A DNA stretch of 64,000 nt from Nitrospirota bacterium (GTDB lineage Bacteria > Nitrospirota > Thermodesulfovibrionia > Thermodesulfovibrionales > Dissulfurispiraceae), in contig CAWBMP010000004.1 in NCBI GenBank assembly GCA_963790025.1, positions 96,001-160,000 on the forward strand. Reading direction: 5' to 3'. The translations under genes and the position numbers were made by a program. Under the pieces are notes generated by a model. The model did no database searches and was not told the origin of the DNA. It saw only the letters and a list, made by a program, of their open reading frames with translations. Positions 1,689 to 61,841 of the stretch are shown in pieces (position 1 is the stretch's first letter; each line of letters begins with the position of its first letter).

Positions 1689-1740
1689 AGTATCCCCCTT
1701 AAAAAAGCGTACGGCGTTCCGGGCACAGCGCTGCACGCCT

Positions 1741-3786
1741 TTATTCCAGCTTCAGCGTTCCAATAGAAAATACTTGCGTACTAGGCGTAATCTCGCCCTG
1801 TGATACGATCATGATACTGCCTGATATCCGTTCAGCCAGTTTCTTCAGAAACCTCCTGATCGTAGGCGAACATAGCACGACCGGTTGATATCCCTTACGG
1901 ACCCCGTCCTCATAATTTTTTTTCAAGTTCTCGCTGATCTTATCAGATGTCACCGGATCAAGGGCCAGATATGAGCCCTGCGGTGTGCTCTGAACAGCTT
2001 CTATTATCTGCCGCTCAACTTTAGGGTCCACTACAATGACGGATATTGACCCATCGGTCCCCTGCAATTGTTTTGTAATGTTACGGGCCAGCGCTTGCCT
2101 GACATACTCTGTCAGTACTTCCGGGTCCTTGGTGACCGCAGCATAATCCGAAAGAGTTTCAAGTATAGTTTGAAGGTCTCTAATAGAAATTCTTTCTCTC
2201 AACAGGTTTTGCAGCACTTTCTGCACTGCGCTTAAGCCAAGAAGGGCGGGGATGAGGTCCTCCACCACTTTGGGGTGTGTTTTAATCAGATTATCAAGCA
2301 GCTTCTGTACATCCTGTTTGCCTAATAATTCATTTGAATAATTCTTTATTACTTCGGTCAGGTGTGTCGCCATCACTGACGGCACATCAACAACCGTATA
2401 GCCGAGCAGTTGGGCTTCCTCCCTGTTTTTTTCATCAATCCAAACTGCATTTAAGCCAAAAGCAGGGTCTTTTCCCGGTATGCCTTCAATCTTTGACGTT
2501 TCGGTACCTGGCGCAATAGCAAGGTATTTATTAAGCATTACATCTGCGGTAGAAACCCCAACTCCTTTTATAAGAATCGAATAAGAATGCGGCTTCAATG
2601 ATAAATTATCTTTTATATGGACCGGTGGAACAATATAGCCCATGTCCGTGACCATTTGTCTTCTGATCGCCTTTATTCTGCTCAGAAGAGTGCCGCCTTC
2701 CTCCACAAGCGGTATCAACCCGTAGCCAATGTCCAGCGATAGAGGATCAATGGGGAGCAATGATTCGAGTGTCTCGGGAGGTTTTACCTCCTCCACTGCC
2801 GGGGCTTCCACAGCTTCCTTCAGCGTGAGTTTCTGTTTTATAAAGTACGCCGTTGTCCCGGTTATGGTTGCGAGAATAATAAAAGGTAAATGAGGCAGCC
2901 CCGGAATCAGTCCGAAAAAACCCAGTATACCGGCTGTGGTACCAAGCACCTTGGGGTTCGCAAAAAGCTGATTAACCACATCGGTGCCGAGGTTCGCCTC
3001 CGCAGCCGCCCTTGTGACAATAATACCGGCGGCGGTTGAGGTGACCAGTGCAGGGATCTGTGCCACCAATCCTTCTCCTATTGTCAGTATGGTGTAAGTC
3101 TGCGCGGCTTCCGCCATAGGCATGCCCTTCTGAATGACCCCTATCATAAATCCGCCAATAATGTTGATTACCATGATAATGATAGCGGCAATGGCATCTC
3201 CCCTCACAAATTTGCTGGCGCCGTCCATAGATCCGTAGAAATCAGCCGCCCTGCTTATTTCCTGCCTTCTCTTCCGCGCTTCTCTTTCATCTATAAGACC
3301 TGCATTCAGGTCCGCATCGATACTCATTTGCTTGCCCGGCATTGCATCGAGGGTAAACCGGGCCGAAACTTCGGCAATCCTGCCTGCGCCCTTCGTAATA
3401 ACAACAAAATTTATTATTATCAAAATAAAAAAGATGACGAAGCCCACCACAAAATTACCGCCGACTACAAATGCCCCGAAAGATTTAATTACCATTCCGG
3501 CGGCCTCGATACCGGTATCGCCCTTCGTGAGAATAAGCCGCGTGGAGGCGATGTTCAAAGCGAGTCTCAGCAGCGTCGCTACAAGCAAAATGGAAGGGAA
3601 GACGGAAAAATCAAGGGGCTTTTCAGTATAAGCCGCCACAAGCAGCACAACAATAGACAGCGTAATGCTGAAAGATAAAAAGAGATCAAGCAGAAGGGCC
3701 GGCACTGGAATGATCATCAATCCGAGGACCAGCACTATGCCGAATGCCAATAAAATGTCGCTCTGTCTTAACAGCCTTTCAAGCAT
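1741..3786 (-). CDS. flhA: Flagellar export gate protein FlhA
   Basis: RIAEVSARFTLDAMPGKQMSIDADL and FYGSMDGASKFVRGDAIA signatures. Confidence 0.98.
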   Translation of the reverse strand: MLERLLRQSDILLAFGIVLVLGLMIIPVPALLLDLFLSFSITLSIVVLLVAAYTEKPLDFSVFPSILLVATLLRLALNIASTRLILTKGDTGIEAAGMVIKSFGAFVVGGNFVVGFVIFFILIIINFVVITKGAGRIAEVSARFTLDAMPGKQMSIDADLNAGLIDEREARKRRQEISRAADFYGSMDGASKFVRGDAIAAIIIMVINIIGGFMIGVIQKGMPMAEAAQTYTILTIGEGLVAQIPALVTSTAAGIIVTRAAAEANLGTDVVNQLFANPKVLGTTAGILGFFGLIPGLPHLPFIILATITGTTAYFIKQKLTLKEAVEAPAVEEVKPPETLESLLPIDPLSLDIGYGLIPLVEEGGTLLSRIKAIRRQMVTDMGYIVPPVHIKDNLSLKPHSYSILIKGVGVSTADVMLNKYLAIAPGTETSKIEGIPGKDPAFGLNAVWIDEKNREEAQLLGYTVVDVPSVMATHLTEVIKNYSNELLGKQDVQKLLDNLIKTHPKVVEDLIPALLGLSAVQKVLQNLLRERISIRDLQTILETLSDYAAVTKDPEVLTEYVRQALARNITKQLQGTDGSISVIVVDPKVERQIIEAVQSTPQGSYLALDPVTSDKISENLKKNYEDGVRKGYQPVVLCSPTIRRFLKKLAERISGSIMIVSQGEITPSTQVFSIGTLKLE

Positions 3787-3795
3787 AATAAACCT

Positions 3796-3868
3796 CGTAC
3801 TGCGTACTGCGTTTTAAAGGCTGCTTTAAGCCTTGTTACGCTGAACGCAGAACGCAGTATCCGGAACG
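3796..3868. repeat. Inverted 7-mer arrays (CGTACTG / ACGCWGA family)
   Basis: cgtactg cgtactg cgtt ... acgctga acgcaga acgcagt; relatives at 1707-1739, 15587-15710, 20282-20359, 21089-21164, 56213-56241. Confidence 0.8.
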
Positions 3869-3883
3869 ATATATTCTGTACGC

Positions 3884-4942
3884 TCATCGTATTTTCCCCT
3901 TGAGTTTATACACATTGGCAAGGATTGCTGCCATTGCCTTGTAAAAAACCTCCGGGATTTCCTGATCGATCTGAAGCTTGTATAAAGACCGGGCCAGCAG
4001 TTTATCTTCAAAGACCGGCACTCCATGTGCCCTTGCGATCTCCCTTATCTTTTCCGCGATCAGATTGGCCCCTTTTGCCTTTACCGCAGGAGCGCCCATA
4101 GTGGCTGAATCGTACTTGAGTGCAACGGCATAATGGGTGGGGTTGGTAATTACCACGTCTGCCTTCGGCACTTCCTGCATCATTCTCTTGCGTGCCATCT
4201 CTCTCTGCAAGCTCTTCAGCCTTGCCTTGACCCGTGGATCGCCCTCCATCTCCTTATGTTCTTCTTTCACTTCCTGTTTCGTCATTTTCAGGTCGCGTGA
4301 GTACTGCCACCGCTGGTATGAAAAATCTACAACGGCAAATATAGAGAGAACAATAACAGAGGTCATAAAAAGCTTTTTTAGTAACACAAATGAAAATTGG
4401 GCCATTCCCGAAATGTCCATGTCGGTGATAAGTGGAATATTCATCATCTCCTTTTGTAAAAGCTTATAAAGGACGAGGCCGAGGACAATCACTTTTAACA
4501 AACCCTTTGCCGCTTCGAAATACATACTAAGATTAAAAAATTTTTTGATCCCTTTCAGCGGGCTGAGCCGCGTGATGTCAGGGGTCAGAGGCTTGGTAGT
4601 TATTAAAAAGCCGCTCTGCAGAAAACCCACAGTCATAACCGCTATGAGCAATGACACGAACAGCGGGGCCATCATTAAAAGCGCTCTTATTGAATCTCCC
4701 CTGAATATTTGCACAAAAGAGGAATCCGTCAGCGAGACCTCAAAGCCTCTTTTAAGCGCCATTCTTAAGTAGTTCAGCAGCATCGTGAACATAAAACCGC
4801 CGAAAGATAGATATAAAAATACAACCCAGAGCGGCATGATGCCGACAATATCCCGGCTCTTTGGGATATTACCCTCTTCACGTGCCTTTTCACGCCTTCG
4901 CCCTGTAGCCTGTTCCGTTCGCTCCTGATCTTCTTCAGCCAT
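3884..4942 (-). CDS. flhB: Export substrate-specificity switch FlhB
   Basis: ERTEQAT N-terminus, MTKQEVKEE.K..EGDP, NPTH autocleavage motif. Confidence 0.98.
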   Translation of the reverse strand: MAEEDQERTEQATGRRREKAREEGNIPKSRDIVGIMPLWVVFLYLSFGGFMFTMLLNYLRMALKRGFEVSLTDSSFVQIFRGDSIRALLMMAPLFVSLLIAVMTVGFLQSGFLITTKPLTPDITRLSPLKGIKKFFNLSMYFEAAKGLLKVIVLGLVLYKLLQKEMMNIPLITDMDISGMAQFSFVLLKKLFMTSVIVLSIFAVVDFSYQRWQYSRDLKMTKQEVKEEHKEMEGDPRVKARLKSLQREMARKRMMQEVPKADVVITNPTHYAVALKYDSATMGAPAVKAKGANLIAEKIREIARAHGVPVFEDKLLARSLYKLQIDQEIPEVFYKAMAAILANVYKLKGKIR

Positions 4943-5005
4943 TCCTCTCTCCTAAAAAAAGCAGGCAAAGGTAAGGGCAGAGGCCTGCTTTTACCTTTGC
5001 CTGCC

Positions 5006-5743
5006 TCATCTCGTAATCACCATGATGGTGTCTTTAACAGTCATAAAAGCACTTGAAATGACCTGAATACTTAGCGGCAAAGATAGGACCATAAATATCA
5101 AACCCAAAGTTATGAGTAACGGGAAGCTTACGAAAAAAACATTCGCCTGAGGAATTGCTTTTGAAAGAAATCCCAATGACAGGTTTATCAGCAACTGTAC
5201 CAGCAGCACAGGGGCAGCTATTTTAAGTGCCATCGGGAAAAAAAACGCATTCAATTTTATGACAGAACTGAACACGCCATTATAACGAATGCTGCTGACA
5301 TCAAAGCTCCGCACAATACCCTCGATGATAAAATAGTGCACGTCGAAAATAAAGAATAACGCCATAGACAGCATCGAATAAAAGAGACTCAAGGGACTCA
5401 GTTGCTCGCCAAAGGTCGGATTGAAAACTGCCGCCATCGATAAACCCATCGCCAGGCTTACCCATTGCGCCGCCATCTCAATGGCGCCCAGGATTATTCG
5501 TGTGGTCAATCCCATGGCAGAACCCACAAAAAAAGCCTCAAAAACCGCCTTTACCGGATTAGAGGCGTCAACATTAACTATCGGAAGGAGCATCAACGTT
5601 AAAGCTATTGAAAGGCCGGCCCTTATCAGTATAGGGGTTTGCTGCGCGCCGATAAAAGGAATAAAAGACAACATCACAGCCACCCTGATAAATATGGGAA
5701 TGAATTTGTCCGCATAGACATTTATCAAGTTATATAATTCCAT
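5006..5743 (-). CDS. fliR: Flagellar export protein FliR
   Basis: Hydrophobic 245 aa, KAIPQANVF motif, position between fliQ and flhB. Confidence 0.93.
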   Translation of the reverse strand: MELYNLINVYADKFIPIFIRVAVMLSFIPFIGAQQTPILIRAGLSIALTLMLLPIVNVDASNPVKAVFEAFFVGSAMGLTTRIILGAIEMAAQWVSLAMGLSMAAVFNPTFGEQLSPLSLFYSMLSMALFFIFDVHYFIIEGIVRSFDVSSIRYNGVFSSVIKLNAFFFPMALKIAAPVLLVQLLINLSLGFLSKAIPQANVFFVSFPLLITLGLIFMVLSLPLSIQVISSAFMTVKDTIMVITR

Positions 5744-5817
5744 AATTAAAGCTTTAATTTAACTTCTTTCAACTTCCTCTTTTTCTTTGCCTTCATCTTC
5801 ATCTTTATCTTTACCTG

Positions 5818-6087: not shown

Positions 6088-6866
6088 CTGAATCCCCCGA
6101 TAAGAGAACCGATCAGGAGCTGCCATCCATCGACCATGACAAAAAGCAGCAACTTAAAGGGCATGGAAACCATGACAGGGGGCAGCATCATCATACCCAT
6201 CGAGAGCAGTACGCTTGCAACAACCATATCAATAACCAGAAAGGGAAGAAAAATAAGGAACCCTATCTCGAATGCCTTTTTAAGCTCTCCGATGGCAAAG
6301 GCAGGAATCACCACCCGCATAGGCAAATCCATCGGTTTTGCAGGTCTCTCCGATTTAGACATCTTCAGAAAGAAAGCAAGCTCCTTCTCTTTAGTCTGTC
6401 TAAGCATGAACTCCTTCAGAGGGCCCCCTGCCCTGTTAATGGCATCTTCGACCCCAATCTCTTTTTTTGAATATGGTTGATACGCTTCCGAGTAAATCCG
6501 GTCGATGACCGGTGACATGATGAAAAATGTAATAAAGAGGGCCAACCCCAGGATTACTTGCGTCGGCGGCACCGAAGGAGTGCCGAGCGCCTGCCTCAAA
6601 AAAGAAAGCACTACAACAATTCTGGTGAATGAGGTGACCATGACAAGAATTGCAGGCAATATGGACAAAAGGGTCAGGAACAGGAGCAACTCAAGGGGCG
6701 TCGACAGGCCAAAAAGTCCGGCACCAGCAGGAGGGGCAGCTGTCGCCGGTGTCTGGGCTAAAACAAAAGAAGGCAACAAAAGGCAATAGGCGATAGGCAA
6801 TAGGCTATAGGTCAAAAACGAAAGACCTTTTCTGTTCTGTTTTTTTATCGTTGACCTATTGCCCAT
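6084..6866 (-). CDS. fliP: Flagellar export protein FliP
   Basis: TSFTRIVVVLSFLRQALG and MGMMMLPP..PFKLLLFVMVDGW signatures. Confidence 0.97.
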   Translation of the reverse strand: MGNRSTIKKQNRKGLSFLTYSLLPIAYCLLLPSFVLAQTPATAAPPAGAGLFGLSTPLELLLFLTLLSILPAILVMVTSFTRIVVVLSFLRQALGTPSVPPTQVILGLALFITFFIMSPVIDRIYSEAYQPYSKKEIGVEDAINRAGGPLKEFMLRQTKEKELAFFLKMSKSERPAKPMDLPMRVVIPAFAIGELKKAFEIGFLIFLPFLVIDMVVASVLLSMGMMMLPPVMVSMPFKLLLFVMVDGWQLLIGSLIGGFR

Positions 6867-6884
6867 AGCCTATTGCCTATCGCC
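6771..6884. repeat. Inverted 7-mer arrays (AGGCAAT / CCTATTG family)
   Basis: aggcaat aggcgat aggcaat aggctat ... cctattg cccatag cctattg cctatcg; relatives at 44531-44619 and 9431-9491 (TAGCTCA variant). Confidence 0.85.
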
Positions 6885-7217
6885 ACCTTGCTTTGTCCCT
6901 AGCCATTTAAGTCTGCTTTTTTGAATTTCGCTGTACGCTTTGGGCCCATCGTCATTTGCTTTTCGCAATTCTTCAATTTCTTCACGATTCAGTTTGCTCA
7001 GGAGCGAGATGCTCTCGTCGGCTATACCCACTGCAATGTAATCATTCACTATTTTAATAATGGCTATGCCTCTCTTGGGTCCTAACGACTGATAATGGAG
7101 CATCTCGATCATCCCCTTTTGCGGCAGCATTTTTTGCTTCATAAACCTGAGCAGCAGATATACCGCAGCAAGGGTCAACAGTAAAGCTGCAGAAACTTTA
7201 ATAATTTCGAAACCCAA
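6870..7217 (-). CDS. fliO: Flagellar protein FliO/FliZ
   Basis: Single N-terminal TM helix, SLGPKR beta-domain, between fliN and fliP. Confidence 0.82.
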   Translation of the reverse strand: MGFEIIKVSAALLLTLAAVYLLLRFMKQKMLPQKGMIEMLHYQSLGPKRGIAIIKIVNDYIAVGIADESISLLSKLNREEIEELRKANDDGPKAYSEIQKSRLKWLGTKQGGDRQ

Positions 7218-7252
7218 GAAAACCTCCTATACCTCTACCTTTACCTGTTTTT

Positions 7253-7582: not shown

Positions 7583-7612
7583 TATAAAAACCTCCGTTCC
7601 CTGTACGCGTTT

Positions 7613-8593: not shown

Positions 8594-8610
8594 TTAACCC
8601 CCAAAAGACA

Positions 8611-8698
8611 GGCATAGGTAAAGGTATAGGTAAAGGAAAAAACTTTTTCTCTTATTATGTTTGCCTTTTCTTTCACTCTACCGATACCTCTGCCTTCT
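8611..8698. repeat. Inverted 6-mer arrays (AGGYAW / WTRCCT family)
   Basis: aggcat aggtaa aggtat aggtaa ... taccga tacctc tgcctt; relatives at 4961-5004, 5757-5817, 7223-7247, 24248-24333, 53957-54053, 55476-55564. Confidence 0.8.
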
Positions 8699-8701
8699 TT
8701 C

Positions 8702-9376: not shown

Positions 9377-9434
9377 GTCAAAAAAATGACGGAATAGAAG
9401 CCATTAGAGGCTCCCTAACCGTCAATAAATTAGC
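9377..9434. promoter_or_regulatory. Putative FleQ-like enhancer sites
   Basis: GTCAAAAAAATGAC (9377-9390, GTCA-N6-TGAC) and degenerate GTCAATAAATTAGC (9421-9434), upstream of the sigma-54 site. Confidence 0.55.
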
Positions 9435-9495
9435 TCATAGCTCATAGAAAAGCACTTTCTGCCTTTGCTATGAGTTATGAGCTATCAGCTAATTA

Positions 9496-14451: not shown

Positions 14452-14569
14452 AGGGAAAAAACGGGTATCAAGTGGCAAACAGCAAAGGAAAAGAAAAAAA
14501 CGGGTACTTGCTACCCTTCATTTTGCCGGTTACTTTTTTCCTATGGGGAATTAATTTCCTGCTCTACGA

Positions 14570-15073
14570 TTACTTCGGGGCTTTGGGGATTTTGGTAATA
14601 ATCTTTTTTGAAATGGAAGCCGCCTTGTCACTGTCCATCTGGGCAAGAATTCCACCGGCAGTCCTCGGCTTCAGTGAGCTGAGAATAGCCGCGGCAGTGT
14701 CCTCGTCAAGTTTTTCGAGTGCTTTTGCAGCTTCTTCAGGGGGCATCGCCTCGTATATCTTGCTTACCTTCAGCAGACGCTGTTTTGCGGCTTCATCCAA
14801 ACCTTTTTGCGCCTCTTCAATATCTTTTTTCAGCTTCTCGTTGTATTCTATTTCCTTTTTTATATCAGACTTTATGATACCAAGCCGTTCCTTATCGAGT
14901 GACCCCTGGTCCTGCCCGTAAGCGGGCGTAAGCAGTAAGCAGTAAGCAGTAAGCAGTAAAACAGTAAATAAAGAAAAAAAAGAACCCAGAGCTTCAAAAG
15001 AATGGATTCCCGCCCGTGCGGGTATAACAATCAAGTGCTTTTTAAGACTTTTTACGAGCTGGTCAGACTTCAT
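14570..15073 (-). CDS. MotE/YlxF-like periplasmic flagellar protein (MgtE N-domain-like)
   Basis: VSKIYEAMPPEEAAKAL..SLKPRTAGGILAQMD motif; signal-like region ending AYG; between fliJ and fliK; AAGGAG SD. Confidence 0.8.
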   Translation of the reverse strand: MKSDQLVKSLKKHLIVIPARAGIHSFEALGSFFSLFTVLLLTAYCLLLTPAYGQDQGSLDKERLGIIKSDIKKEIEYNEKLKKDIEEAQKGLDEAAKQRLLKVSKIYEAMPPEEAAKALEKLDEDTAAAILSSLKPRTAGGILAQMDSDKAASISKKIITKIPKAPK

Positions 15074-15143
15074 TGTTTATCTCCTTACCACTCACTTCTT
15101 ACCCTTTTTGCTAAATCCTATTTTCTTTTTTACTGCTTACTCC

Positions 15144-15584
15144 CTACCGCCTGCTATCTTTCCTTTGATGCCGTATTATCGCACTCTCGTCTATGTTTAT
15201 CTGTTCTTTTCTTTTAATTTCTTTACTGAGCATACTTTTTTGTTTCTCGTCCAGTTTTTCAAATGTCTTTTTTTCCTTCGAAGCCTCCTGAAGGGCCTTG
15301 CGCGACTCTTCCACCTGAAGCTCCTTTTGCAAGATCACTTTCTTCTGACGCTCTATCTTATCCAGCAAATATTCTATATATCTATTCAGTCTCCTGATTT
15401 CAGCAATTTCGATCAATTTATTCGTCGCCGCTTCAAATTTTGTGCCGGCATCCTTATACTGCTCTTCCAAGGCAAGAAGGCGTTTCTCTTCTACCGCAAG
15501 CTGTTTAAGGCAATGAGCAAACTGCTGCTTTGCCTCATCCTCCTTCCATCTTTTCAGATTCAACAGACTCGCGATAGTACTCAT
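15144..15584 (-). CDS. fliJ: Flagellar export protein FliJ
   Basis: Coiled-coil 146 aa, EKKTFEKL and EQINIDE motifs, directly after fliI. Confidence 0.88.
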   Translation of the reverse strand: MSTIASLLNLKRWKEDEAKQQFAHCLKQLAVEEKRLLALEEQYKDAGTKFEAATNKLIEIAEIRRLNRYIEYLLDKIERQKKVILQKELQVEESRKALQEASKEKKTFEKLDEKQKSMLSKEIKRKEQINIDESAIIRHQRKDSRR

Positions 15585-15710
15585 ATAGCGTACTGCGTAC
15601 GGAGTTCAGCGTGCCGCGTAAAAAAAATCGCAGACTTTCTGTTAGTCACTTCTCTATTCATGTCCGTTATAGTCCTTTAACGCTGTACGCTGAACGCACA
15701 ACGGCGAACG

Positions 15711-17036
15711 TTATTCAAATAAACCATTGAGATCCTGCAAGCCCTGTTCAAAAGTGACCTTGTCGGTAATGTTTTGTCTCAGAAAAGCCCTGATTTTTTC
15801 CATCATACGTATGGCTGCATCCAGCCCCGGATTTGTCCCTTCCTTATATGCTCCGATGGTGATGACATCTTCGTATCTTTTATACAAGGCCATTATTTCC
15901 AGCACTTTTTCCACCTGCATTTTGTGCTTCGGGTCGGATATATCTTTCATAAGCCTGCTTATACTCTGAAGGACATCAATTGCCGGATAGTGATTGTGGT
16001 TGGCAAGCTCCCTGGAGAGGACTATATGGCCATCGAGTATTGACCTGGCGGCATCGGCAATCGGCTCATTCATATCATCGCCTTCAACAAGGACTGTATA
16101 CAGGCCGGTTATTGTTCCCTCCCGCTCCCATGTGCCTGCCCGTTCAAGGAGCTTGGGCATGAGATTGAAAACTGACGGTGTATACCCTTTCATAGTCGGC
16201 GGTTCACCGGCAGCCAAACCTATTTCTCTTTGCGCCATTGCAAATCTCGTCAGCGAGTCCATCATTAACAGAACGTTTTTGCCCAGCGACCTGAAGTACT
16301 CGGCAATGGCCGTTGCGACAAAAGCGCCACGTATTCTTATAAGCGGAGAAGTGTCCGATGTGGCTACCACAAGCACCGACCTATTTAGTCCTTCCGCGCC
16401 GAGGTCTTTCTCAATAAACTCCCTTACTTCCCTCCCGCGCTCACCGATAAGGGCTATGACATTGACATCTGCGGCCGTATTCCGTGCCATCATGCCTAAA
16501 AGCACACTCTTGCCGACACCGCTGCCGGCCATTATCCCGATCCTCTGGCCTTTCCCAATGGTAAGCAAGGTGTTTACAGAACGTATCCCGAGGTCAAGAG
16601 GAGTGGTTATTCGCTGACGGTATAACGGATTTATCGGCTCGTTATATACCGGATATAGCTGGCCTGTCACAGGTTCTTTGGCATCCATCGGGTTGCCGAC
16701 ACCGTCAAGTATTCGTCCCAAAAGGCCCTTGCCCATCCTTATGTAACGCTGCCTGCCCTTTGCTACTATTCTGGAGCCCGGACCGATGCCCCTCAATTCA
16801 CCAAGAGGCATCAAAAGTATTTTACCTTCTTTAAAACCTATAACTTCGGCCTCCATAAACTGTTCTGCTCCATTGCCGTTTAATTCTATCTGGCATATAT
16901 CGCCGATATTGGCCTGAGGACCAAGTCCCTCAATCACAATACCGATCCCTTTGTTCACCTTGCCGTAAACCTTGACCGGATCGGTTTCCCTGACAATAGA
17001 CTTACATCTTTCTATGAGTTGCAGTGCCGATGACAT
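15711..17036 (-). CDS. fliI: Flagellar export ATPase FliI
   Basis: AGSGVGKS Walker A, LIGERGREV, MDSLTRFAMAQREIGL. Confidence 0.97.
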   Translation of the reverse strand: MSSALQLIERCKSIVRETDPVKVYGKVNKGIGIVIEGLGPQANIGDICQIELNGNGAEQFMEAEVIGFKEGKILLMPLGELRGIGPGSRIVAKGRQRYIRMGKGLLGRILDGVGNPMDAKEPVTGQLYPVYNEPINPLYRQRITTPLDLGIRSVNTLLTIGKGQRIGIMAGSGVGKSVLLGMMARNTAADVNVIALIGERGREVREFIEKDLGAEGLNRSVLVVATSDTSPLIRIRGAFVATAIAEYFRSLGKNVLLMMDSLTRFAMAQREIGLAAGEPPTMKGYTPSVFNLMPKLLERAGTWEREGTITGLYTVLVEGDDMNEPIADAARSILDGHIVLSRELANHNHYPAIDVLQSISRLMKDISDPKHKMQVEKVLEIMALYKRYEDVITIGAYKEGTNPGLDAAIRMMEKIRAFLRQNITDKVTFEQGLQDLNGLFE

Positions 17037-20264: not shown

Positions 20265-20362
20265 CAATTAAACCCCGCAATAACGTGCTGCTTACAGCGC
20301 ACTGCGTTCCAAAGTCCGTTTCGGGGGCTTTTCACGCAGTGCGCTGTAAGCAACACGCGAAT

Positions 20363-21078: not shown

Positions 21079-21167
21079 TTAAAACCCCCGTTCAGCGTGC
21101 GGCGAACAGCTTACTGCGTCAAAAGCCTCTAAAGCGGACCTTGGAACGCTGTAAGCAGTACGCGTTT

Positions 21168-24239: not shown

Positions 24240-24337
24240 AATTAATCAGGCATAGGCATAGGTTAAGATTGAGAATAAAATTTTTTTCTTCACTTTATTC
24301 TTTTACTCCACCTTTACCTTTTCCTTTACCTCTCTTT

Positions 24338-26035
24338 TTATTCACCTTTAATTAATAATTTGGCAGCTTCTCCCACTGCCCCGCCGCCATTAGCGGCCTT
24401 TTTCAGATACTCTTTGTCATTGGTCATTTTGCCGTACTGGTAGTAAGCCCACTGGCGGCTCTTCTCATCGGGAAGCCCCAGACTCAGGGCCCGTTTATAA
24501 TACACACGTGATTTGGAAAGATTCCCTGAGAGGAATAGCAGATCACCCGCCTTAAGCGCAGCGACCGCATCGCCGTATACGTCAGAAGCCACTTTGTAAT
24601 ATTGCAATGCCCTGGCCTTGTCTCCGGTCTCAAGATATAAATCTGCGATTTTATTGCTGATCCTGGCGCTTTTTGAATATTTGTTTGCCTTTTCCAGATA
24701 ACCGATAGCGCCTTGCAAGTCGCCTTTTTGGCTCAATATGTCAATCATGAGAAACGTCGCCTTTACAAAATATCTGTTGTCCAGCAAAAGAGGGGCCAGA
24801 GTTTTTTCGGCTTCGCTGTATTTACCATCTTTGAAAAGCATTTGGGCCATTAACAGCGCGGCATCTCCTTCCTGAACACCGTGCATCGCCTTATTGAGCA
24901 GTAAATTGCCCTCCAATTTTTTTCCGTTTTCGATCAGGTATTGTGCGGCAGTAAGAATGAAAGGGCTTTCCTGGCTGATCGAAGCCAGGAATTTGAGAAG
25001 GCATTCCGCAGCCTTAGGATCTTTGGCGGCAATAAGCTGCCTCAGTCGCTTTTCAATTTCTGACGACCGTTTTCCCTTGTCCTTCAGCAGACTCGCATAT
25101 CTCAATGCATTTTCTCTATCTCCCTTTTTATCGTAAAGCGAGGCTATGGACATTTTAACGCTGTCGTCTGTTTCGTAAGGCCCTAAATCGAGATACAATT
25201 TCAGAGCATCATCCACCCTTCCCTTACCTTCATACACTTTGGCAAGAATTTTCTGTGCCTTCTGTTTCTCGATCATGGATACAGGGTCTGCAATGATGGA
25301 CTCACACAGTTTCTCTGCCCTATCCATCCGCGAAGCGTTAAAATAAATCAATGCCTTGTCCGCCCTCAAGTCCTCTTCTCTCAATATTACATCGAAAATT
25401 TTATTGATAACGCTCACTGCCTCTTTGTGCATTCCCTTTTTGCTTAATATGACGGCCTGTACATAGAGCGCCCGTGGATTGCGTCCCAGCTCTTTTTTGT
25501 CCATGGCGTTAATGATGGATTCCGCAGCCGCAACATCATCGCGCTTAAGGGCCACCTCTGCTCTTCCTATATCAGCTTTTTGTTTTAAAGGAGCGACTAC
25601 CTGCTCAAAATAATGCTGTGCCTGATCGAATTTTTTGTCATACATTAAGATATAGCCCGTGAGTAAAAAGGCCTCGTCCACATACTCAGACTGAGGGAAG
25701 GCCAGTAAAAAGCGCTGCAGATTCAGACGCGCTTCAGAATAGCGCTTCAGTTTGTAATCAGTTCTCACCATGCCCCACAATGCACGTTCGGAAAACGGGC
25801 CCCTCCTGTTGTTAATAAAAACTCCCCGATAAATCTCTTCCGCCTTATTGTAGTGTCTGGTCTTATAAAAGTAGTCTGCTGATTTCAGCGGATCTTCGGC
25901 AGCAAATGAGCGAATGGGTAAAAAGGTAAATGAGCAGATGAGTAAAAGTGTAAATGAAAGGTCAATTATCTGACATAGAGTCATTAGCAATCTCTTGCAA
26001 GTGTTATTTTTATGACAGTTTATCCATTCTCTCAT
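24338..26035 (-). CDS. Exported TPR-repeat protein
   Basis: Signal-like segment ending SFA-AE, multiple TPR-like helices; start uncertain. Confidence 0.75.
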   Translation of the reverse strand: MREWINCHKNNTCKRLLMTLCQIIDLSFTLLLICSFTFLPIRSFAAEDPLKSADYFYKTRHYNKAEEIYRGVFINNRRGPFSERALWGMVRTDYKLKRYSEARLNLQRFLLAFPQSEYVDEAFLLTGYILMYDKKFDQAQHYFEQVVAPLKQKADIGRAEVALKRDDVAAAESIINAMDKKELGRNPRALYVQAVILSKKGMHKEAVSVINKIFDVILREEDLRADKALIYFNASRMDRAEKLCESIIADPVSMIEKQKAQKILAKVYEGKGRVDDALKLYLDLGPYETDDSVKMSIASLYDKKGDRENALRYASLLKDKGKRSSEIEKRLRQLIAAKDPKAAECLLKFLASISQESPFILTAAQYLIENGKKLEGNLLLNKAMHGVQEGDAALLMAQMLFKDGKYSEAEKTLAPLLLDNRYFVKATFLMIDILSQKGDLQGAIGYLEKANKYSKSARISNKIADLYLETGDKARALQYYKVASDVYGDAVAALKAGDLLFLSGNLSKSRVYYKRALSLGLPDEKSRQWAYYQYGKMTNDKEYLKKAANGGGAVGEAAKLLIKGE

Positions 26036-34814: not shown

Positions 34815-34817
34815 ATA

Positions 34818-35555: not shown

Positions 35556-35594
35556 GCACTATAAGATAACTTTCATTTCTTCTGGTACTGAATT

Positions 35595-36149: not shown

Positions 36150-36257
36150 ATGCCTGATTTACTATCCGCGGTAACAGACAGTGTCAATTAAATAGTTTGA
36201 ACGTGTGACAAGCTTTTTTTTTATGTTGAACATGATTTTTTTTATTAAAAAAAAGTC

Positions 36258-36290
36258 TTGACAATTATTTTGTCCTTTCTATACTATAAT
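36258..36290 (+). promoter_or_regulatory. Probable sigma-70 promoter for ImmA/IrrE gene
   Basis: TTGACA, 18 bp, TACTAT(AAT), with A-rich upstream tract. Confidence 0.5.
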
Positions 36291-36432
36291 CGCACCAACA
36301 GATTTGTCTGCAGTGTTGAGCTTTGATCAACTAAAAAGTTTTAAAGAATGAATGAGGTGTTCAAGTTTTGCATTCGCTGCAGTGACAGTGATATTTATTT
36401 ATTTATTAATAACGTATGAGAACCGGTGGGCG

Positions 36433-36930: not shown

Positions 36931-36961
36931 GTCACCAGAGAAAAGTCAATTATTGAAGGAA

Positions 36962-37036
<75 letters not shown>

Positions 37037-44466: not shown

Positions 44467-44626
44467 TACAAATTAGAATACAATACTGGACAAAAGAATG
44501 CATATCGGATTTTGTCCTATGAAGGATGAATAATGGCAATAGGCGATAGGCTATAGGCTATGGTGTTAATGCTGGAGAAAAAATTGTCCTACAACAACTA
44601 CCTATTGCCTATTGCCTGTATTACGC

Positions 44627-45292: not shown

Positions 45293-45427
45293 AACCGCAG
45301 AGCACACAGAGATTATTGTTGCACTCAAAGAACCGAAGTACAGAGAGCCCCGGGATTCTGCTCTGTGTAAGCTCGGTTTTAACTCTTGTTCCAAGATTAA
45401 TCATTTCCTCTGTGTTCTCTGTAGTTT
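45293..45427. repeat. Inverted 9-mer-type arrays (CRCAGAG / CTCTGYG)
   Basis: aaccgcagagcacacagag ... ctctgtgttctctgtagtt. Confidence 0.65.
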
Positions 45428-52648: not shown

Positions 52649-52673
52649 AATTACCCATTTACTCATTCTCCCT

Positions 52674-52898: not shown

Positions 52899-53022
52899 AT
52901 AGCATCCCTCCCTTTTATTTATTATCTATAGAATTTTACAACAAACTTACAAAAACAGTAAATGAGTAGATGGGTAAATGGGTAATAAAAAAAGTCTTTT
53001 ACCAATTTACTGATCCACTCAT

Positions 53023-53946
53023 TCACTGTTTTGCAGGCATCTCAATGGGCTTGGTGAATTCCAAGGGGTTCCTGGGCGCAACATTGAGCGGCCCGAACAA
53101 GGATTTCTTTTGCTCCTGCCCGGCAGCCGGTTTTTCTGCAGCCGGTGCTGGAGCTTTTGTCTCGGCAGGCTGGACCGTCATCGGCGGCCGCGGAACTCTC
53201 TCATTGAGCACAATTATGCTGATTCTCCTGTTTCTGGAGTCAGTGGGACTATCTTTATAAAGCAGTTGGGTATCGGCATAGCCGACTACCCGGGCAATCC
53301 TGCCGGAGTCAACACTGTTCTGCTCAAGATTCCGGCGGGCAGTTGACGCCCTTTCAGTAGATAGTTCCCAGTTGGTATACTTTTCACGCTTAAGGGGGGA
53401 TGAATCTGTATGGCCTTCCACAGCGATCTTGTTCGGCATATCTTTAATATTATCCGCAACAAAGCCTAAAATTTCTTTTGCGCTTGAACTAAGCTCCGCT
53501 CCGCCGGGAAGGAACATCGGTTTGCCCTCTGTATCGACAACTTGAATTCTAACGCCCTCCGGGACGGCATCAATCATCACATGTTCTTTCAGTCCCTGCA
53601 ATTTCTCGTCTATCGCTTTTTTCAGCTTGTTTTGGAAATCTTCGGCAAATGCCTTTGCAGACTCCTGGGAGACGGTCTGCGCTTCACCGCCAGGTTTGGA
53701 TAAAATCTGTGAAGATTCTTGCATGAACGACTTGCCGGATTTTTCAAATATGGAGAAGTTCTTGAAATATTCTGCCATAGAGGCCCTCTTCTGAGGCGTG
53801 ACCATCGCAAGCAGCCACATCAGCAGGAAAAAGGCCATCATTGCGGTCACAAAATCGGCATAAGCGACCTTCCAGCTGCCCCCGTGGCCGCCTTCGTGTC
53901 CCCTCCTGATTTTTTTGACTATTACAGTCTTGGATTTGTCAGCCAT
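53023..53946 (-). CDS. motB: Flagellar stator MotB (set 1)
   Basis: WKVAYADFVTAMMAFF, EGHTD, NWELS..RA, NRRI. Confidence 0.95.
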   Translation of the reverse strand: MADKSKTVIVKKIRRGHEGGHGGSWKVAYADFVTAMMAFFLLMWLLAMVTPQKRASMAEYFKNFSIFEKSGKSFMQESSQILSKPGGEAQTVSQESAKAFAEDFQNKLKKAIDEKLQGLKEHVMIDAVPEGVRIQVVDTEGKPMFLPGGAELSSSAKEILGFVADNIKDMPNKIAVEGHTDSSPLKREKYTNWELSTERASTARRNLEQNSVDSGRIARVVGYADTQLLYKDSPTDSRNRRISIIVLNERVPRPPMTVQPAETKAPAPAAEKPAAGQEQKKSLFGPLNVAPRNPLEFTKPIEMPAKQ

Positions 53947-54053
53947 CTAAAAAATCAGGCAAAGGTAGAGGTAAAGATTAAGACAAATTAGATCAAAAAT
54001 AAAAACTTTATCTTTATCCTTTTCTTTACCTTCCTTACTTACCTTTACCTGCC

Positions 54054-54911
54054 TCACTTCTTCAGTTCCCTTATTTTTTCCTCAATTTCTACGAATGAGG
54101 GTTTCACGTTAGCGGGGATTACCCGTCTGCCGAATTCCACTGCAATTTGCGGCGCTGCCCCCCCTACAAATCCTACAAGGGCTATCTTTAATACATTCAG
54201 GTAATCTCTTTCTTCATTTGCACCGAACTCGAGATTTTTTGCCGCGGGCCCGACAAAGCCATAGCACATCAACACACCAAGAAAAGTGCCCACCAGCGCC
54301 GAGGCAACACTGTGCCCGATAATTTCGGGAGGTTCGCTTATTTTCCCCATCGTTATGACAACACCAAGGACCGCCGCAACAATTCCGAGGCCCGGGAGGG
54401 AGTCGGCAATCGTACCGATACTCTTGGATGGGATCATTAATTCTTCATGATGCGACTCAAGCTCTGTATCGAGCAGAGATTCGAGTTCATGCGGCGCTAT
54501 ACTGGTGGTCATTACCGTCCGCAGGGTATCGGTAACCAATGAAACAGCATGATGATTTTTAAGAAATTTAGGGTAGTTGCTGAAAATCTTGCTTTCCTCA
54601 GGGTTGTCCACGTCAGCCTCAATCGAAACAAGACCCTCTTTTCGTATTTTTGCGAATATTTCACTTAAAAGCAAAAGCACTTCTATATAATCACCCTTGG
54701 AATATGTCTTGCCTGTAAGTAGTTTAACAATACCGCCAATAACGGCCTTGATGACCTTGACAGGAGAGGCTATAATAAAACCACCGATTGCCGCTCCAAA
54801 TATTATAAGCAGTTCGACCGGCTGAAAGATAACACTGAGGTTTCCTTTCTCTATCATAAAACCGCCGATAACACAACCAAAAACGATGACCGCTCCGATT
54901 ATAGCAAACAT
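54054..54911 (-). CDS. motA: Flagellar stator MotA (set 1)
   Basis: LPGLGIVAAVLGVV, ALVGTFLG, AVEFGRR. Confidence 0.95.
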   Translation of the reverse strand: MFAIIGAVIVFGCVIGGFMIEKGNLSVIFQPVELLIIFGAAIGGFIIASPVKVIKAVIGGIVKLLTGKTYSKGDYIEVLLLLSEIFAKIRKEGLVSIEADVDNPEESKIFSNYPKFLKNHHAVSLVTDTLRTVMTTSIAPHELESLLDTELESHHEELMIPSKSIGTIADSLPGLGIVAAVLGVVITMGKISEPPEIIGHSVASALVGTFLGVLMCYGFVGPAAKNLEFGANEERDYLNVLKIALVGFVGGAAPQIAVEFGRRVIPANVKPSFVEIEEKIRELKK

Positions 54912-54921
54912 AAAACCTCGT

Positions 54922-55458: not shown

Positions 55459-55566
55459 AAAAACCCCCAAAGAACAGGTATAGGTAAAGATGCAGGTAAA
55501 GACAAAAATTAGCTTCTTTTTTGCTTCTCTTTCCCTCTCCCGCTACCTTTGCCTCTACCTTGCTTT

Positions 55567-56211: not shown

Positions 56212-56241
56212 TCCGTTCGTTCACGCACAACGCTGAACGCC

Positions 56242-56997
56242 TCATGACTTTTCATAGTCCGCCAGAAATGCATTCATGCGGGCTTTGAGAAAGTAAGGGT
56301 TGACGCCGCTTTCGATTCCCAGGACACCCTCAACTATCAGTTCCTTGACAAATACCTCCTCTTTAAGCCTGTTCATCACCTTTTTGCCGAGAGGTATGAG
56401 AAAAAGGTTGGCTGATCCGACACCGTAAATCGTTGCAACGAAGGCGACTGCTATTCCACCGCCGATTTTTGACGGATCGGTGACATTACGCATGACCTGA
56501 ATAAGACCCAGAACAGCGCCTAATATGCCTATGGTCGGTGCATACCCGCCAGCTGACTCATATACTTTTGATGCTTTTTTGTAGGTTTCCTCATAGGTGG
56601 AAATCTCCTGGTAAAGTATTTCCTTTATCATTGCAGGAGGAATACCGTCGATGACAAGCGACAACCCTTTCCTCAGGAATGGGTTGTCGATAGTTTTGAC
56701 CTGAGACTCAAGGGTCAGCAGACCCATCTTCCTGGCCTTAACCAGAAGACCTAAAATGTCCTCTATTACTTCACCGGGCGATGACGACCTGCCGCCGAAG
56801 ACCATGCCAAGCGCCATGACAGCATTAAATAAATCCCTGATCGAAAAGCTCAGCATAGTCGCGCCCAGCGTACCGCCGAAAACGATTATTGCCGCGGCGA
56901 CCTGTACAAGATGGGCGGTGTTGCCGCCTTCAACCAGGTTTCCGCCGATTATAGCGCCTATTCCGAGAATAATGCCTATTAGTGCAGCTATATCCAT
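56242..56997 (-). CDS. Second stator A subunit (MotC/PomA-like)
   Basis: GGYAPTIGILGAVLGLI, AFVATIYGV. Confidence 0.92.
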   Translation of the reverse strand: MDIAALIGIILGIGAIIGGNLVEGGNTAHLVQVAAAIIVFGGTLGATMLSFSIRDLFNAVMALGMVFGGRSSSPGEVIEDILGLLVKARKMGLLTLESQVKTIDNPFLRKGLSLVIDGIPPAMIKEILYQEISTYEETYKKASKVYESAGGYAPTIGILGAVLGLIQVMRNVTDPSKIGGGIAVAFVATIYGVGSANLFLIPLGKKVMNRLKEEVFVKELIVEGVLGIESGVNPYFLKARMNAFLADYEKS

Positions 56998-57038: not shown

Positions 57039-57335
57039 TGAGTAAATGGGTAAATGGGTAGATGAGTGGACGGGTAAATAAGTAAATGGGAACGCGGTAA
57101 TACTTGACACACTACTGTCAAACCTCGTGGAGCTTGTTACGAAGAAACACTTGGATATTAGCCTTAAAGACATTGAAAGTGACATTAAGCTGCTCAAATG
57201 GATCATGGGCGTTATAATTGCAGGCACCTATCTATATAATCCACCCATTTACTCATAAACTTATTTACTCGTACACTCATACACTCGTTCACCCATTTAC
57301 TCATTTACTCTTTTACTTTTCTCATATACTCATTC
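57039..57335. repeat. Inverted 8-mer arrays (GRGTAAAT / ACYCATTT family)
   Basis: gagtaaat gggtaaat gggtagat gagtggac gggtaaat aagtaaat ... acccattt actcataa acttattt actcgtac actcatac actcgttc acccattt actcattt; relatives at 25901-25957, 52651-52668, 52957-53028. Confidence 0.85.
57094..57257 (+). pseudogene. Gene relic resembling the C-terminus of DUF1640/CCDC90-like coiled-coil proteins
   Basis: Manual translation ...NLVELVTKKHLDISLKDIESDIKLLKWIMGVIIAG...; no clear start; flanked by inverted 8-mer arrays. Confidence 0.45.
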
Positions 57336-57765
57336 ACGCACTCACACTTTCACTCATCCCCCCACTCACACTTTCACTCATTCCCCCATTCACCGTATCC
57401 TTGATCTGTGTCCAACCTTCGCGCACGTCTTTCAGCAGGGAGGCAATGTGGAGCAGTTTGGCGCCGTCATTGCTGACATTTGCCATGAAAATCTCTGTCA
57501 TCATATAACCATACAGGCCGCGCAGGTTCACAGCCACTTCTCCTCCTACATCCATATCCAGGCTCCTGTCGAGCTCCTCGATGATTGCCAATGCGTTGCT
57601 GATATATTTCAGCTTTATATGCAGGTTTTTCATGTTTATCCCTGTGGCTGCCTTATGAAGGAACTCGATGGCCCCATCGTAAAGCATGATAATCAGGTCA
57701 ACAGGGCTGCCGCCGACAACCTTTGCCTGAGTGTAAGAATTCAGGGCATACGCTGTGTTTACCAT
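57334..57765 (-). CDS. fliS: Flagellin chaperone FliS
   Basis: SPVDLIIMLYDGAI, GGEVAVNLRGLYGYM, REGW. Confidence 0.94.
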   Translation of the reverse strand: MVNTAYALNSYTQAKVVGGSPVDLIIMLYDGAIEFLHKAATGINMKNLHIKLKYISNALAIIEELDRSLDMDVGGEVAVNLRGLYGYMMTEIFMANVSNDGAKLLHIASLLKDVREGWTQIKDTVNGGMSESVSGGMSESVSA

Positions 57766-59288: not shown

Positions 59289-59365
59289 ATCAGTTCCTCC
59301 AAACTAGTATCAGAGTCAGTTGGAAAATGAGTGATAAGCATAAGGAAATCAACTCATTTACTATT

Positions 59366-59392
59366 TTATCGGGATATTCAGATTAATCTTTA
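59366..59392 (-). promoter_or_regulatory. Sigma-28 promoter for fliD-fliS
   Basis: TAAA-N15-CCCGATAA. Confidence 0.8.
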
Positions 59393-59432
59393 ACAGTGAA
59401 AAGCAGTAAATGTGCGGATGAGTATACTCTTT

Positions 59433-59896: not shown

Positions 59897-59939
59897 TGTT
59901 TCTGCTTACCTCTTAATCCTTAACCCTTACTTACTGCTG

Positions 59940-61421
59940 TTATTTCGGCAACAGTGCAAGGATCTGCTGCGGCAATGTGTTGGCCTGTGCCAGCACCGAG
60001 ATACCTGCTTGCTGCGTGATCATCGCCTTTGTCATATTTGCCGTCTCAGCCGCGTAGTCGGCATCCATAATCCGGGACTGTGCAGCACTCATGTTCTGAG
60101 AAGTGTTCTGCAGGTTCGAAATTGCAGACGTAAACCGGTTCTGATAAGCGCCCAGCGATGCCGCTGAATTATTGATAGAAGTCAGCGCCGCATCAATCGT
60201 GCTTATAGCGGTGTTTGCCCCGGCTTGAGTTGAGATATTGATGGACGATACCGCGCCTGTGACGTTTGCCGTTGCGGCATTTAATCCCGTAACAGCAGCG
60301 GAAACGCCGCCAAAAGCATGAACAACGTTGGCGCCGCCAATAAGAATGCCGGCAGATCCGTTTGAAGCTAAGGTGACCGACCCGTAAAGAGTAGTAAAGT
60401 TTACACCACCAGGTGTACATAATCCGGCCAATGAAGCATTGTTACCGGTAACGACTATATCGCGGCCATCCGCTGCGGTCAGAGTTATACCCACATCAGT
60501 GCCTACACCGGTATTTGTAGTGTACAGTGTTGCCGTTACGCCGGTTGATATACTCATGGCATTGATAGCTGCTACAAGATTGGATTCCAGACCAACGGCA
60601 CTGCCGCCTGCGGCCACTGATCCTAAAGCGAACCCGTTGATCGTTATACCGGCGGAAACCGCAGTACCGGCCAGTACAGCAGCCATAGTACCCTGACCAT
60701 TTGCTGTCGTCGCAATCGCAGTTGCCGTTACACCGCAAGCAGCCTGGTTAATCGCATTGGCTATAGACCATGCGCTGTCATTATTCTGTCCTGCTGCCCC
60801 TGACATGGTGGGGCTGACAGCAATACCATTAATCGAAAGATCACCAACGGCCAATGCTGCCATACCGACGCTGCTGCCGACAACAGCGGTTGAGTAACTC
60901 GCGCTTCCCCCGGTGAGCGACCCTGTCCTGGCACTGGAAATAGAAGCTATGGTGATGGTCTGCCCCGCAAAAGCACCGACCTGAAACGACTGGTTCTGGA
61001 AGGTGCCGTCCAGCAAATTGATGCCGTTGAATTGTGCCGTTTGCGCAACCCTGTCGATTTCAGCGATCAACTGCGTAGACTGTGTGTTCAGCGCCGCGCG
61101 GTTCGATGCACTGTTTGTAGCATTTTCCGATTGGATTGCAAGTGTGCGGATTGTCTGCAGGTTATTTGCCAATGCCGTTAATGAACCCGACGCGGTCTGC
61201 AATAATGAGACAGCGTCATTGGCATTCCTTACAGCCTGGTTCATACCATTGACCTGTGAGGCCATCTTTGTCGCAATTGCCATACCAGCCGCGTCATCCG
61301 CTGCGGAATTGATCCTCAAGCCGGTTGACAGCCTCTGCATAGAGGTTGCCAGAGGTTGCTGGGCCTGGCTTAGAGCATTCTGGGTGTTGAGAGAAAATAG
61401 GTTGGTGTTAATTGAAAGCAT
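59940..61421 (-). CDS. fliC: Flagellin (copy 1)
   Basis: RLSTGLRINSAADDAAG, LGAYQNRF, SRIMDADYAAE, AQAN. Confidence 0.97.
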   Translation of the reverse strand: MLSINTNLFSLNTQNALSQAQQPLATSMQRLSTGLRINSAADDAAGMAIATKMASQVNGMNQAVRNANDAVSLLQTASGSLTALANNLQTIRTLAIQSENATNSASNRAALNTQSTQLIAEIDRVAQTAQFNGINLLDGTFQNQSFQVGAFAGQTITIASISSARTGSLTGGSASYSTAVVGSSVGMAALAVGDLSINGIAVSPTMSGAAGQNNDSAWSIANAINQAACGVTATAIATTANGQGTMAAVLAGTAVSAGITINGFALGSVAAGGSAVGLESNLVAAINAMSISTGVTATLYTTNTGVGTDVGITLTAADGRDIVVTGNNASLAGLCTPGGVNFTTLYGSVTLASNGSAGILIGGANVVHAFGGVSAAVTGLNAATANVTGAVSSINISTQAGANTAISTIDAALTSINNSAASLGAYQNRFTSAISNLQNTSQNMSAAQSRIMDADYAAETANMTKAMITQQAGISVLAQANTLPQQILALLPK

Positions 61422-61636
61422 GCTATGTTCCTCCTTGAGTTTTATTTACGGGCGTCCTGCCCGTAATGCGATCAGCATACAGCGTTGTACGCGCCTAATG
61501 CGCATACCTTTGGTGCTTAATGCACCTGCTTTTGGTGCCTAAGGCACCTGCTGTTGGCCCGGTGTTAAAAACATTAATTCACCTCCTTATTGGGCAATTC
61601 TGTATATACGCCTCAGACTTTAATCGCTTGTCTATT

Positions 61637-61663
61637 TTATCGGAGGGCATTTTGAAAACTTTA
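61637..61663 (-). promoter_or_regulatory. Sigma-28 promoter, flagellin copy 1
   Basis: TAAA-GTTTTCAAAATGCCC(15)-TCCGATAA. Confidence 0.85.
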
Positions 61664-61669
61664 ATTCAC

Positions 61670-61747
61670 TATGAGGATTATCATGAAACCCTGGAAGATC
61701 AGAGATATGGGCTTATTGAAGGAGAGCTTATAATGACACCATGGTAA
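61670..61747 (+). pseudogene. Uma2 (DUF820)-like N-terminal relic
   Basis: YEDYHETLEDQRYGLIEGELIMTP resembles the Uma2 start TYEDY..LPED.RYELI.GEL.M.P. Confidence 0.55.
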
Positions 61748-61790
61748 AAAAAAAATTCAGGGCCATCCTCCGTGAGGAGGACCTGCCCTG
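61746..61790 (-). terminator. Intrinsic terminator after flagellin copy 2
   Basis: Same hairpin as 59864-59896, here followed by AA plus T10 on the coding strand. Confidence 0.75.
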
Positions 61791-61841
61791 CTGTTTCTGC
61801 TTACCGCTTGCCTCTTAATCCTTAACCCTTACTGCCTGCTG

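Follow-up and report, generated by a model that had tools for sequence, protein, structure and literature searches.

Inverted tandem-repeat hairpins at gene junctions of a Dissulfurispiraceae genome, probable gene-less shells of cassettes enclosing a four-helix-bundle gene

Introduction

Tandem heptamers of variable copy number lie between the genes of cyanobacteria, where they are known as short tandemly repeated repetitive (STRR) sequences. Among other bacteria, GGGAATC arrays of Xanthomonas form inverted pairs (70 in Xcc) near stop codons (PMC4692102), and the TAACTGA repeat of Beggiatoaceae supplies stops when read one way and leaves the frame open when read the other way (PMC4679880). Inverted repeats associated with a gene are found in the intervening sequence (IVS) of 23S rRNA, which in Coxiella bears an open reading frame (ORF) for S23p (PMC4990558), and in REPINs (doublets of repetitive extragenic palindromes), which are numerous, gene-less, extragenic inverted doublets with variable spacers and family-specific partner genes, the REP-associated tyrosine transposases or RAYTs (PMC3337134). 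Small hairpin elements have also been described as YPAL and RU-2 MITEs (miniature inverted-repeat transposable elements), one of which partly forms a predicted signal peptide (PMC2229807). Finally, the Avd protein of diversity-generating retroelements forms a pentamer, and all five protomers make contact with a single RNA stem-loop (bioRxiv 10.1101/2023.10.23.563531; PMC10053308). Here we describe a class of hairpins made of inverted 6-9-mer tandem arrays in the genome of a Nitrospirota bacterium of the Dissulfurispiraceae (G000, completeness 98.8%), starting from a window of 64,000 nucleotides (nt) on its contig C4 (positions 96001-160000), which carries flagellar and motility genes on the minus strand, and we argue that these hairpins probably derive from cassettes enclosing a four-helix-bundle or a GxxExxY gene.

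The class resembles several of these systems. As in the IVS, complementary termini form a long stem, and the same protein family (S23p/TIGR02436) is encoded between terminal inverted repeats; such an ORF, optional in the IVS, fills the loop of two G000 copies but not of the window copies, and an arm pair is present in both 23S genes of G000. An IVS is removed by RNase III and the rRNA pieces stay unjoined; G000 does have an RNase III gene. Unlike the IVS, the arms consist of 6-9-mers in tandem, in about 11 families, most copies are gene-less and nearly all are outside rRNA: those of the window lie between or in protein genes, and only the two 23S copies have the rRNA location. With REPINs the class shares a variable spacer enclosed by two inverted units, both from a single family in 205 of 214 pairs. 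However, its partner is a four-helix bundle instead of an HUH/Y1 transposase and is encoded inside the pair, the arms are tandem arrays rather than single palindromes, and the Y1 genes of G000 have no arms. The window copies lack a defining feature of both rRNA intervening sequences and REPIN-RAYT systems. By analogy, the class would work like an rRNA intervening sequence loose among protein genes, accompanied by a REPIN-like population of empty shells. MITEs are marked by a duplicated target site and by conserved terminal repeats in common with an insertion sequence; in our elements we saw no fixed-length conserved body and, by eye, no consistent target duplication, and predicted signal-peptide use recurs with different families in orthologues. 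The TIGR02436 protein has a fold related to Avd (template modelling score, TM, 0.72), but their identity is 12% and we found no reverse transcriptase in G000. Intergenic tandem heptamers of variable copy number, which mark STRR sequences, are present here too, with units different from the published ones. GGGAATC and TAACTGA are likewise intergenic and variable in copy number; the term 'helix bundle' is not in the main text of either article (PMC4692102, PMC4679880).

Results

The two TIGR02436 four-helix-bundle genes of G000 occupy adjacent junctions of one operon, and both stand between AGGTWA arms, which bears out an association that the initial annotation had put forward. Among the 12 same-family pairs of G000 with gaps of 95-1500 nt, a frame longer than 100 amino acids (aa) occurs only in these two cassettes, and there are about 100 gene-less pairs per filled one. 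The family is present in 27 of 41 related genomes. We scanned TIGR02436 loci for arms (150 submitted, 3 without a hit and 6 duplicates, leaving 141) and found inverted tandem arms at 90 of the 141, against 0 of 423 shuffles, in a sample biased by 80 input loci selected by likeness to one 6-mer protein. On a quick-search tree of the 82 proteins with called arms (107 columns), one clade spanning more than 10 phyla (Shimodaira-Hasegawa-like approximate likelihood ratio test 98) is associated with 6-mer arms in 48 of its 52 members, the four exceptions being a nested 7-mer subclade, and the unit-length label changes 8 times, compared with 28.5 times when shuffled. Of the 11 arm profiles trained on G000, 7 match both flanks of filled genes elsewhere. 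The association proposed for GxxExxY genes held for relatives only: G000 has no such gene, and in the relatives (6 of 41 genomes) 9-mer arrays, including the CRCAGAG type, lie beside the gene at 7 of 8 loci, with a simple arm-gene-arm layout in 4 of 8 (by eye). Searches of open-access literature gave no article that ties four-helix-bundle or GxxExxY genes to tandem-repeat arms, and relative to the literature searched the link appears to be new. Metagenome loci with GGGAATC arrays include a four-helix-bundle gene at 2 of 121, a figure that is uninformative because only about 1 filled per 100 gene-less copies is expected.

The fold of the TIGR02436 protein matches Xcc0516 and BT0352 in addition to Avd. 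Composite layouts (for example arm-gene-arm-spacer-arm) surround four-helix-bundle genes at loci L005, L007, L008, L020 and L022, which suggests repeated insertion at one spot. Y1 transposases were rejected as partners, as none of 11 PF01797 genes has an arm within 200 nt; several of them (G000 C5:249411, C4:1215177, C5:55813) share short terminal repeats of their own, unrelated to the tandem arms. A small GIY-YIG gene, also considered as a partner, has no arms either.

Comparison of orthologous junctions for empty and filled sites, which the initial annotation had proposed, revealed filled, gene-less and absent states at a single site, the junction of pmm and manC. Of its 11 loci, two are filled (G000, G003), four gene-less (G001, G002, G004, G006) and five element-free. 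The G006 locus has its left arm fused to the gene's final codons and stop, with 18 of 19 nt identical to the G003 gene, and the spacers of G001, G002 and G004 retain its first codons. Truncated four-helix-bundle genes were also found between arms in G000 (C2:471161-471302) and, in G014 and G016, at the fliL-fliM junction, the same that carries the pair at 8608-8697 of the window. At the manC-ugd junction 6-, 7- and 8-mer families alternate among loci. An origin in place, by polymerase slippage and fold-back copying with an incidental gene link, would fit the varying copy number of the arrays and the symmetry of the inner stems. It is largely refuted by the coupling of protein clades to repeat units across phyla and by the pmm-manC series. 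Against it also stand the genome-wide recurrence of a few units in fixed order and the swapping of families at one site, and we regard it as extremely improbable.

Families also replace one another at flagellar junctions, at a 23S helix tip and in predicted signal peptides. A survey of 11 flagellar junctions in 19 genomes with a de novo pair caller gave 180 states, of which 104 were short, 28 called pairs and 48 other, the last class holding many visibly degenerate pairs, since the caller undercalls these (2/11 in G000). The flhB-flhA junction is short in 10 of 18 genomes and carries pairs in 6, which by eye belong to five families. In each of the two 23S genes of G000 the same 6-mer pair, as 109 nt, replaces a 6-nt loop (columns 283-288 of the Rfam model), and at 17 loci the same helix has 6-, 7- or 8-mer families, other long inserts or, in four genomes, a short helix. 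The two 23S genes of G004 (L404, L422) bear different repeat families at this one tip. In G000, two arm pairs lie in a tRNA-bearing 16S-23S spacer (C2:711711-711962), the spacer of the other operon being short; an AGTGTC pair near one rRNA operon, considered as a possible 16S insert, sits in the 16S-23S spacer ahead of a tRNA.

This turnover bears on the proposal, also made in the initial annotation, that the hairpins are stems for operon mRNA processing or stoichiometry, that is, RNase III sites or stabilisers selected by the host to tune operon expression. Most orthologous junctions have no hairpin at all; of the 11 surveyed, 10 are without a called pair in one of the two closest relatives and 9 in the other. 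Some observations do agree with such a role: the sense strand is the more stable in 82 of 136 cases, with 542 against 425 G-U pairs; own arms pair slightly better than swapped ones (41.7 versus 39.8, 69/124, p 0.017); in long gaps 14 of 24 elements lie within 30 nt of the upstream stop and 3 near the next start; and an RNase III gene is present in G000. In a smaller set aligned directly by stem, however, G-U and A-C pairs number 146 and 138, decay of C to T on the coding strand would yield the same bias, and the link to genes is left unexplained. The small folding bias thus lends this reading weak support against fast turnover, and we judge it improbable.

The class is genome-wide, and not flagellar as its description from the window had implied. 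On contig C4, tandem arrays of period 6, 7, 8 and 9 number 70, 149, 41 and 51, compared with 8, 5, 7 and 12 after shuffling, and 192 inverted pairs occur in G000 against 0 in the shuffled genome. We folded 128 elements (131 less 3 dropped beforehand as non-family), of which 120 have z < -2, so that arm complementarity does exceed that of shuffled controls. Profiles trained on these elements and run on the whole of G000 found 618 arms in about 11 families and 214 left-right pairs, in 205 of which both arms are of the same family; only 2 pairs were right-left, in keeping with the fixed arm order within families noted in the window. With genes called by a simple purpose-written caller (background junctions: 2457 co-directional, 356 convergent, 353 divergent), the 205 same-family pairs lie at 136 co-directional, 43 convergent and 20 divergent junctions and, in 6 cases, inside called genes. 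The tendency to start at a stop codon is general: the median distance from the upstream stop is 4 nt, 73 of 92 elements begin within -25..+15, and an arm contains or touches that stop in 50 of 136 co-directional cases. The reported lack of U-tracts holds for the class, although U-tracts do follow a few stems of the window (1707, 4961). Runs of 8 nt directly behind the stem contain 6 or more U on 24 of 136 sense strands versus 31 antisense, and an intrinsic terminator reading of the class was rejected on this count.

Gene-less spacers are mostly A-rich and then T-rich, extending the stem (A makes up 0.46 of the first inner half and T 0.45 of the second). These mirror-biased halves, together with the roughly hundredfold excess of gene-less pairs, would suit non-autonomous, REPIN-like elements copied in trans by a cognate protein, with deletion having produced only the founders. 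Some non-orthologous sites in relatives also share spacer stretches (scores 29-32 against half-shuffled maxima of 24-26, 45 elements), the spacers of REPINs are likewise all different (PMC3337134), and the genomic context is REP-like (convergent 43/356 against divergent 20/353, p 0.003). On the other hand, the 81 spacers compared in G000 include no near-identical gene-less copies, neighbours in G000 do not cluster significantly by family (p 0.12), no Y1 gene has arms nearby and the TIGR02436 protein has no transposase fold. Copying of this kind as the main source of the hairpins therefore seems to us unlikely.

Nor are the hairpins confined to non-coding gaps. In most families translation of the 3' arm gives hydrophobic residues whichever frame is used, and that of the 5' arm gives basic residues or stops. 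An open frame with a start runs through the 3' arm in 23 of 92 downstream genes, about 13 of which resemble signal peptides or lipoboxes, as called by eye from hydropathy, lipobox and position. From their sequences, some hairpins thus appear to encode predicted protein export signals. The predicted signal-peptide core of FliP, LLPIAYCLLL, is encoded by the 3' arm of the pair at 6771..6887, and the Pfam FliP domain starts at residue 64; that of ORF 14570-15073 is encoded by the 3' arm of a GCAGTAA pair, and ORF 24338-26035 uses a single GRGTAAAT arm likewise as its hydrophobic N-terminus. Among the 14 orthologous loci of one lipoprotein, the leader has an arm score of at least 19 in 9, from four families, and three distant loci have ordinary leaders.

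In the window itself we folded 27 stretches against dinucleotide shuffles (z score), 20 arm pairs and 7 single arms. This agrees with the estimate of about 20 inverted pairs, and every unit type named earlier (AGGYAW, CGTACTG/CGTTCAG, AGGCAAT, TAGCTCA, GCAGTAA, GRGTAAAT, CRCAGAG type) was found. In 15 of the 20 pairs z is -2 or lower and five fold weakly (14461, 15587, 21090, 56214, 59326); single arms or remnants mark 8 further junctions, namely the 7 folded stretches and an unfolded remnant at 7597. The window contains 10 profile-called pairs versus 3.8 expected, and arms overlap the reading frames of FliP, ORF 14570-15073, ORF 24338-26035 and FliS. Pfam confirmed FliP, MotA/B, FliS, FlaG and IlvD in the window; all other gene names, including pmm, manC and ugd, were read from translations. 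Apart from tRNA, no Rfam family was found in the window.

Through the first flagellar genes, a degenerate CGTWCWG pair lies at flhA-flhF (1707..1740, z -2.2; the junction is short in 9 of 17 genomes), a CGTACTG/CGTTCAG pair at flhB-flhA (3793..3862, z -3.2) and an AGGYAW pair at fliR-flhB (4961..5007, z -5.7), its minus-strand left arm beginning at the fliR stop. A lone minus-strand AGGYAW arm without a fold follows the fliQ stop (5761..5817), the AGGCAAT pair at 6771..6887 (z -10.4) covers the fliO stop and the FliP start, and another lone minus-strand AGGYAW arm is found at fliN-fliO (7226..7247). The remnant at fliM-fliN (7597..7611) is of the CGTWCWG family; an AGGYAW pair occupies fliL-fliM (8608..8697, z -4.5) and a TAGCTCA pair starts 4 nt past the stop of a hook gene (9431..9491, z -5.8). 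DNA contigs of run X2 span 3787-3890 and 8606-8706 at a depth below 3 and a minimum likeness of 85; they may come from other organisms and are not used as support.

Further on, a fliK-like frame contains a 57-nt tandem repeat in 7.3 copies (13281-13695). It is followed by a degenerate pair of unclear family (14461..14533, z -0.4) and by the GCAGTAA pair that takes in the stop of fliJ and the N-terminal part of ORF 14570-15073 (14928..15155, z -4.9). The loop of this element, like that of two others of the GCAGTAA family, contains a short GC-rich palindrome (window 15003-15025; G000 C2:665554 and C2:722372), and nested palindromes of similar kind occur in G006. The CGTWCWG pair at fliI-fliJ (15587..15712) was called by profile and folds weakly (z -0.2), at a junction that is short in 11 of 12 relatives. 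Pairs of CGTWCWG/GCAGTAA type lie at fliE-fliF (20283..20358, near-perfect, z -10.8) and flgB-flgC (21090..21164, z -1.6). An AGGYAW pair separates a tetratricopeptide repeat gene from a sensor kinase (24248..24333, z -4.9), and the lone minus-strand GRGTAAAT arm of ORF 24338-26035 is at 25903..25960, in frame.

The tRNA-Gly island (30098-37036) has a partial tRNA copy near 30098-30137 and a full tRNA at 36962-37036, and its interior carries plus-strand signalling genes and an IrrE-like peptidase; as observed initially, it is without a pair, with one borderline single-arm score inside an ORF. Beyond it are an AGGCAAT pair (44535..44619, z -4.3) and a pair of CRCAGAG 9-mer arrays whose loop contains a further pair (45293..45425, z -2.7); CRCAGAG is the unit type that flanks GxxExxY genes in relatives. 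A lone minus-strand GRGTAAAT arm precedes ilvD (52650..52672). The motA-motB genes then occur twice in tandem (53023-56997), with a GRGTAAAT pair behind motB (52956..53029, z -5.4), an AGGYAW pair at motA-motB (53957..54054, z -7.7), an AGGYAW pair behind the second motB (55474..55562, z -5.3) and a collapsed CGTWCWG hairpin at motA-motB (56214..56240, z -0.5). Over the 3' end of fliS, a long GRGTAAAT pair (57040..57393, z -2.5) encloses a 41-codon open fragment (57124-57246) without a Pfam match. We liken this fragment, unconfirmed by Pfam, to a family with a coiled coil and a membrane tail (DUF1640-like), and it is a possible third type of cargo. A degenerate mixed pair (59326..59428, z -1.4) comes next. 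Behind each of two near-identical flagellins of 493 aa (59940-61421 and 61842-63323) come a lone arm and a GC-rich stem that is the same in both cases; the arms, mixed and on the minus strand, lie directly behind the stops of the first (59900..59939) and the second flagellin (61796..61841). A short fragment between these genes (about 61700-61760) resembles the start of a Uma2-type nuclease and may be one. The last element is a lone plus-strand CGTWCWG array within ORF 63479-63985 (63796..63825).

Discussion

Since the hairpins turn over between relatives and match the arms of four-helix-bundle genes, they are likely to be emptied shells of a mobile cassette. The observations that carry this reading are the arm-gene-arm layout, the coupling of protein clades to repeat units, the deletion series at one site and the turnover of families; taken together, orthologous sites present the element as filled, truncated, gene-less, collapsed or absent. 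We propose that the gene-less hairpins are deletion derivatives of IVS-like cassettes enclosing a four-helix-bundle (or GxxExxY) gene and probably moving with their own protein, and give this a probability of about 0.7. One of the two alternatives in the initial annotation, a single structural class that marks the ends of a small mobile cassette or the scars left by it, is therefore the one supported, by the AGGTWA-flanked TIGR02436 genes, the 9-mer arms of GxxExxY genes and the filled, gene-less and absent states. We infer from these observations that the cassette can move, that it gave rise to most gene-less pairs and that its protein binds the repeat of its own cassette.

Several points weigh against this proposal. 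A protein-level remnant of the gene is found in only 1 of 128 interiors, and in 8 of 10 comparisons spacers have no family-specific likeness to the ends of the cognate gene, the two positives resting on one reference gene. With so few gene traces in the spacers, origin by deletion is shown at one junction and in three truncated copies and is therefore extrapolated to the rest. Spacers that are A-rich and then T-rich and extend the stem are not expected from gene ends alone; fold-back correction or independent copying could produce them. In G000 an intact gene exists for the 6-mer family only, despite about 11 families, and no filled locus was matched at threshold by the CGTWCWG and AGCTCAT profiles, nor by those of AGTGTC and the 9-mer. 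By eye no target-site duplication is consistent, in a comparison whose nearest empty relatives share only about 92% identity in FliM, and G000, at its 98.8% completeness, has no PF00078 (reverse transcriptase) match. The better folding of the sense strand (p 0.0009), though slight, and the dependence of the clade coupling on a quick 107-column tree and 80 likeness-picked loci are to be added.

If the hairpins are emptied cassettes, their history might run as follows. A cassette would enter a tolerated site, either immediately after a stop codon or at the tip of a hairpin; its loop gene would then be deleted, leaving a hairpin of 80-110 nt, and some gene-less hairpins would be copied to nearby sites. 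Afterwards they would decay, be overwritten by another family or be kept, retention being favoured where the purine arm contributes basic residues or a stop codon, and its pyrimidine counterpart the hydrophobic core of a signal peptide. The position behind stops and at helix tips could reflect either targeting or the survival of tolerated insertions. As to movement, we can offer only a tentative guess: since the five protomers of Avd contact one RNA stem-loop, an Avd-like pentamer might bind its own repeat in folded RNA or single-stranded DNA, host enzymes carrying out the insertion. More generally, and as speculatively, a transposase-free mobile class may exist whose protein, an Avd-like pentamer (or a GxxExxY nuclease), recognises the tandem repeat of its own element on folded RNA, drives insertion behind stops and into hairpin tips, and moves gene-less shells in trans.

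The pairing of protein clades with repeat units, as read from the sequences, would offer a binding specificity that can be tested directly. The hairpins also rewrite host genes, with stop codons within arms and predicted signal peptides of one orthologous protein taken from different families. Were the transposase-free class real, it would be the common source of rRNA intervening sequences, orphan heptamer repeats and recurrent new signal peptides. On the cassette reading, two old puzzles, the origin of bacterial 6-9-mer intergenic repeats and the role of the four-helix-bundle protein of rRNA intervening sequences, would have one answer.

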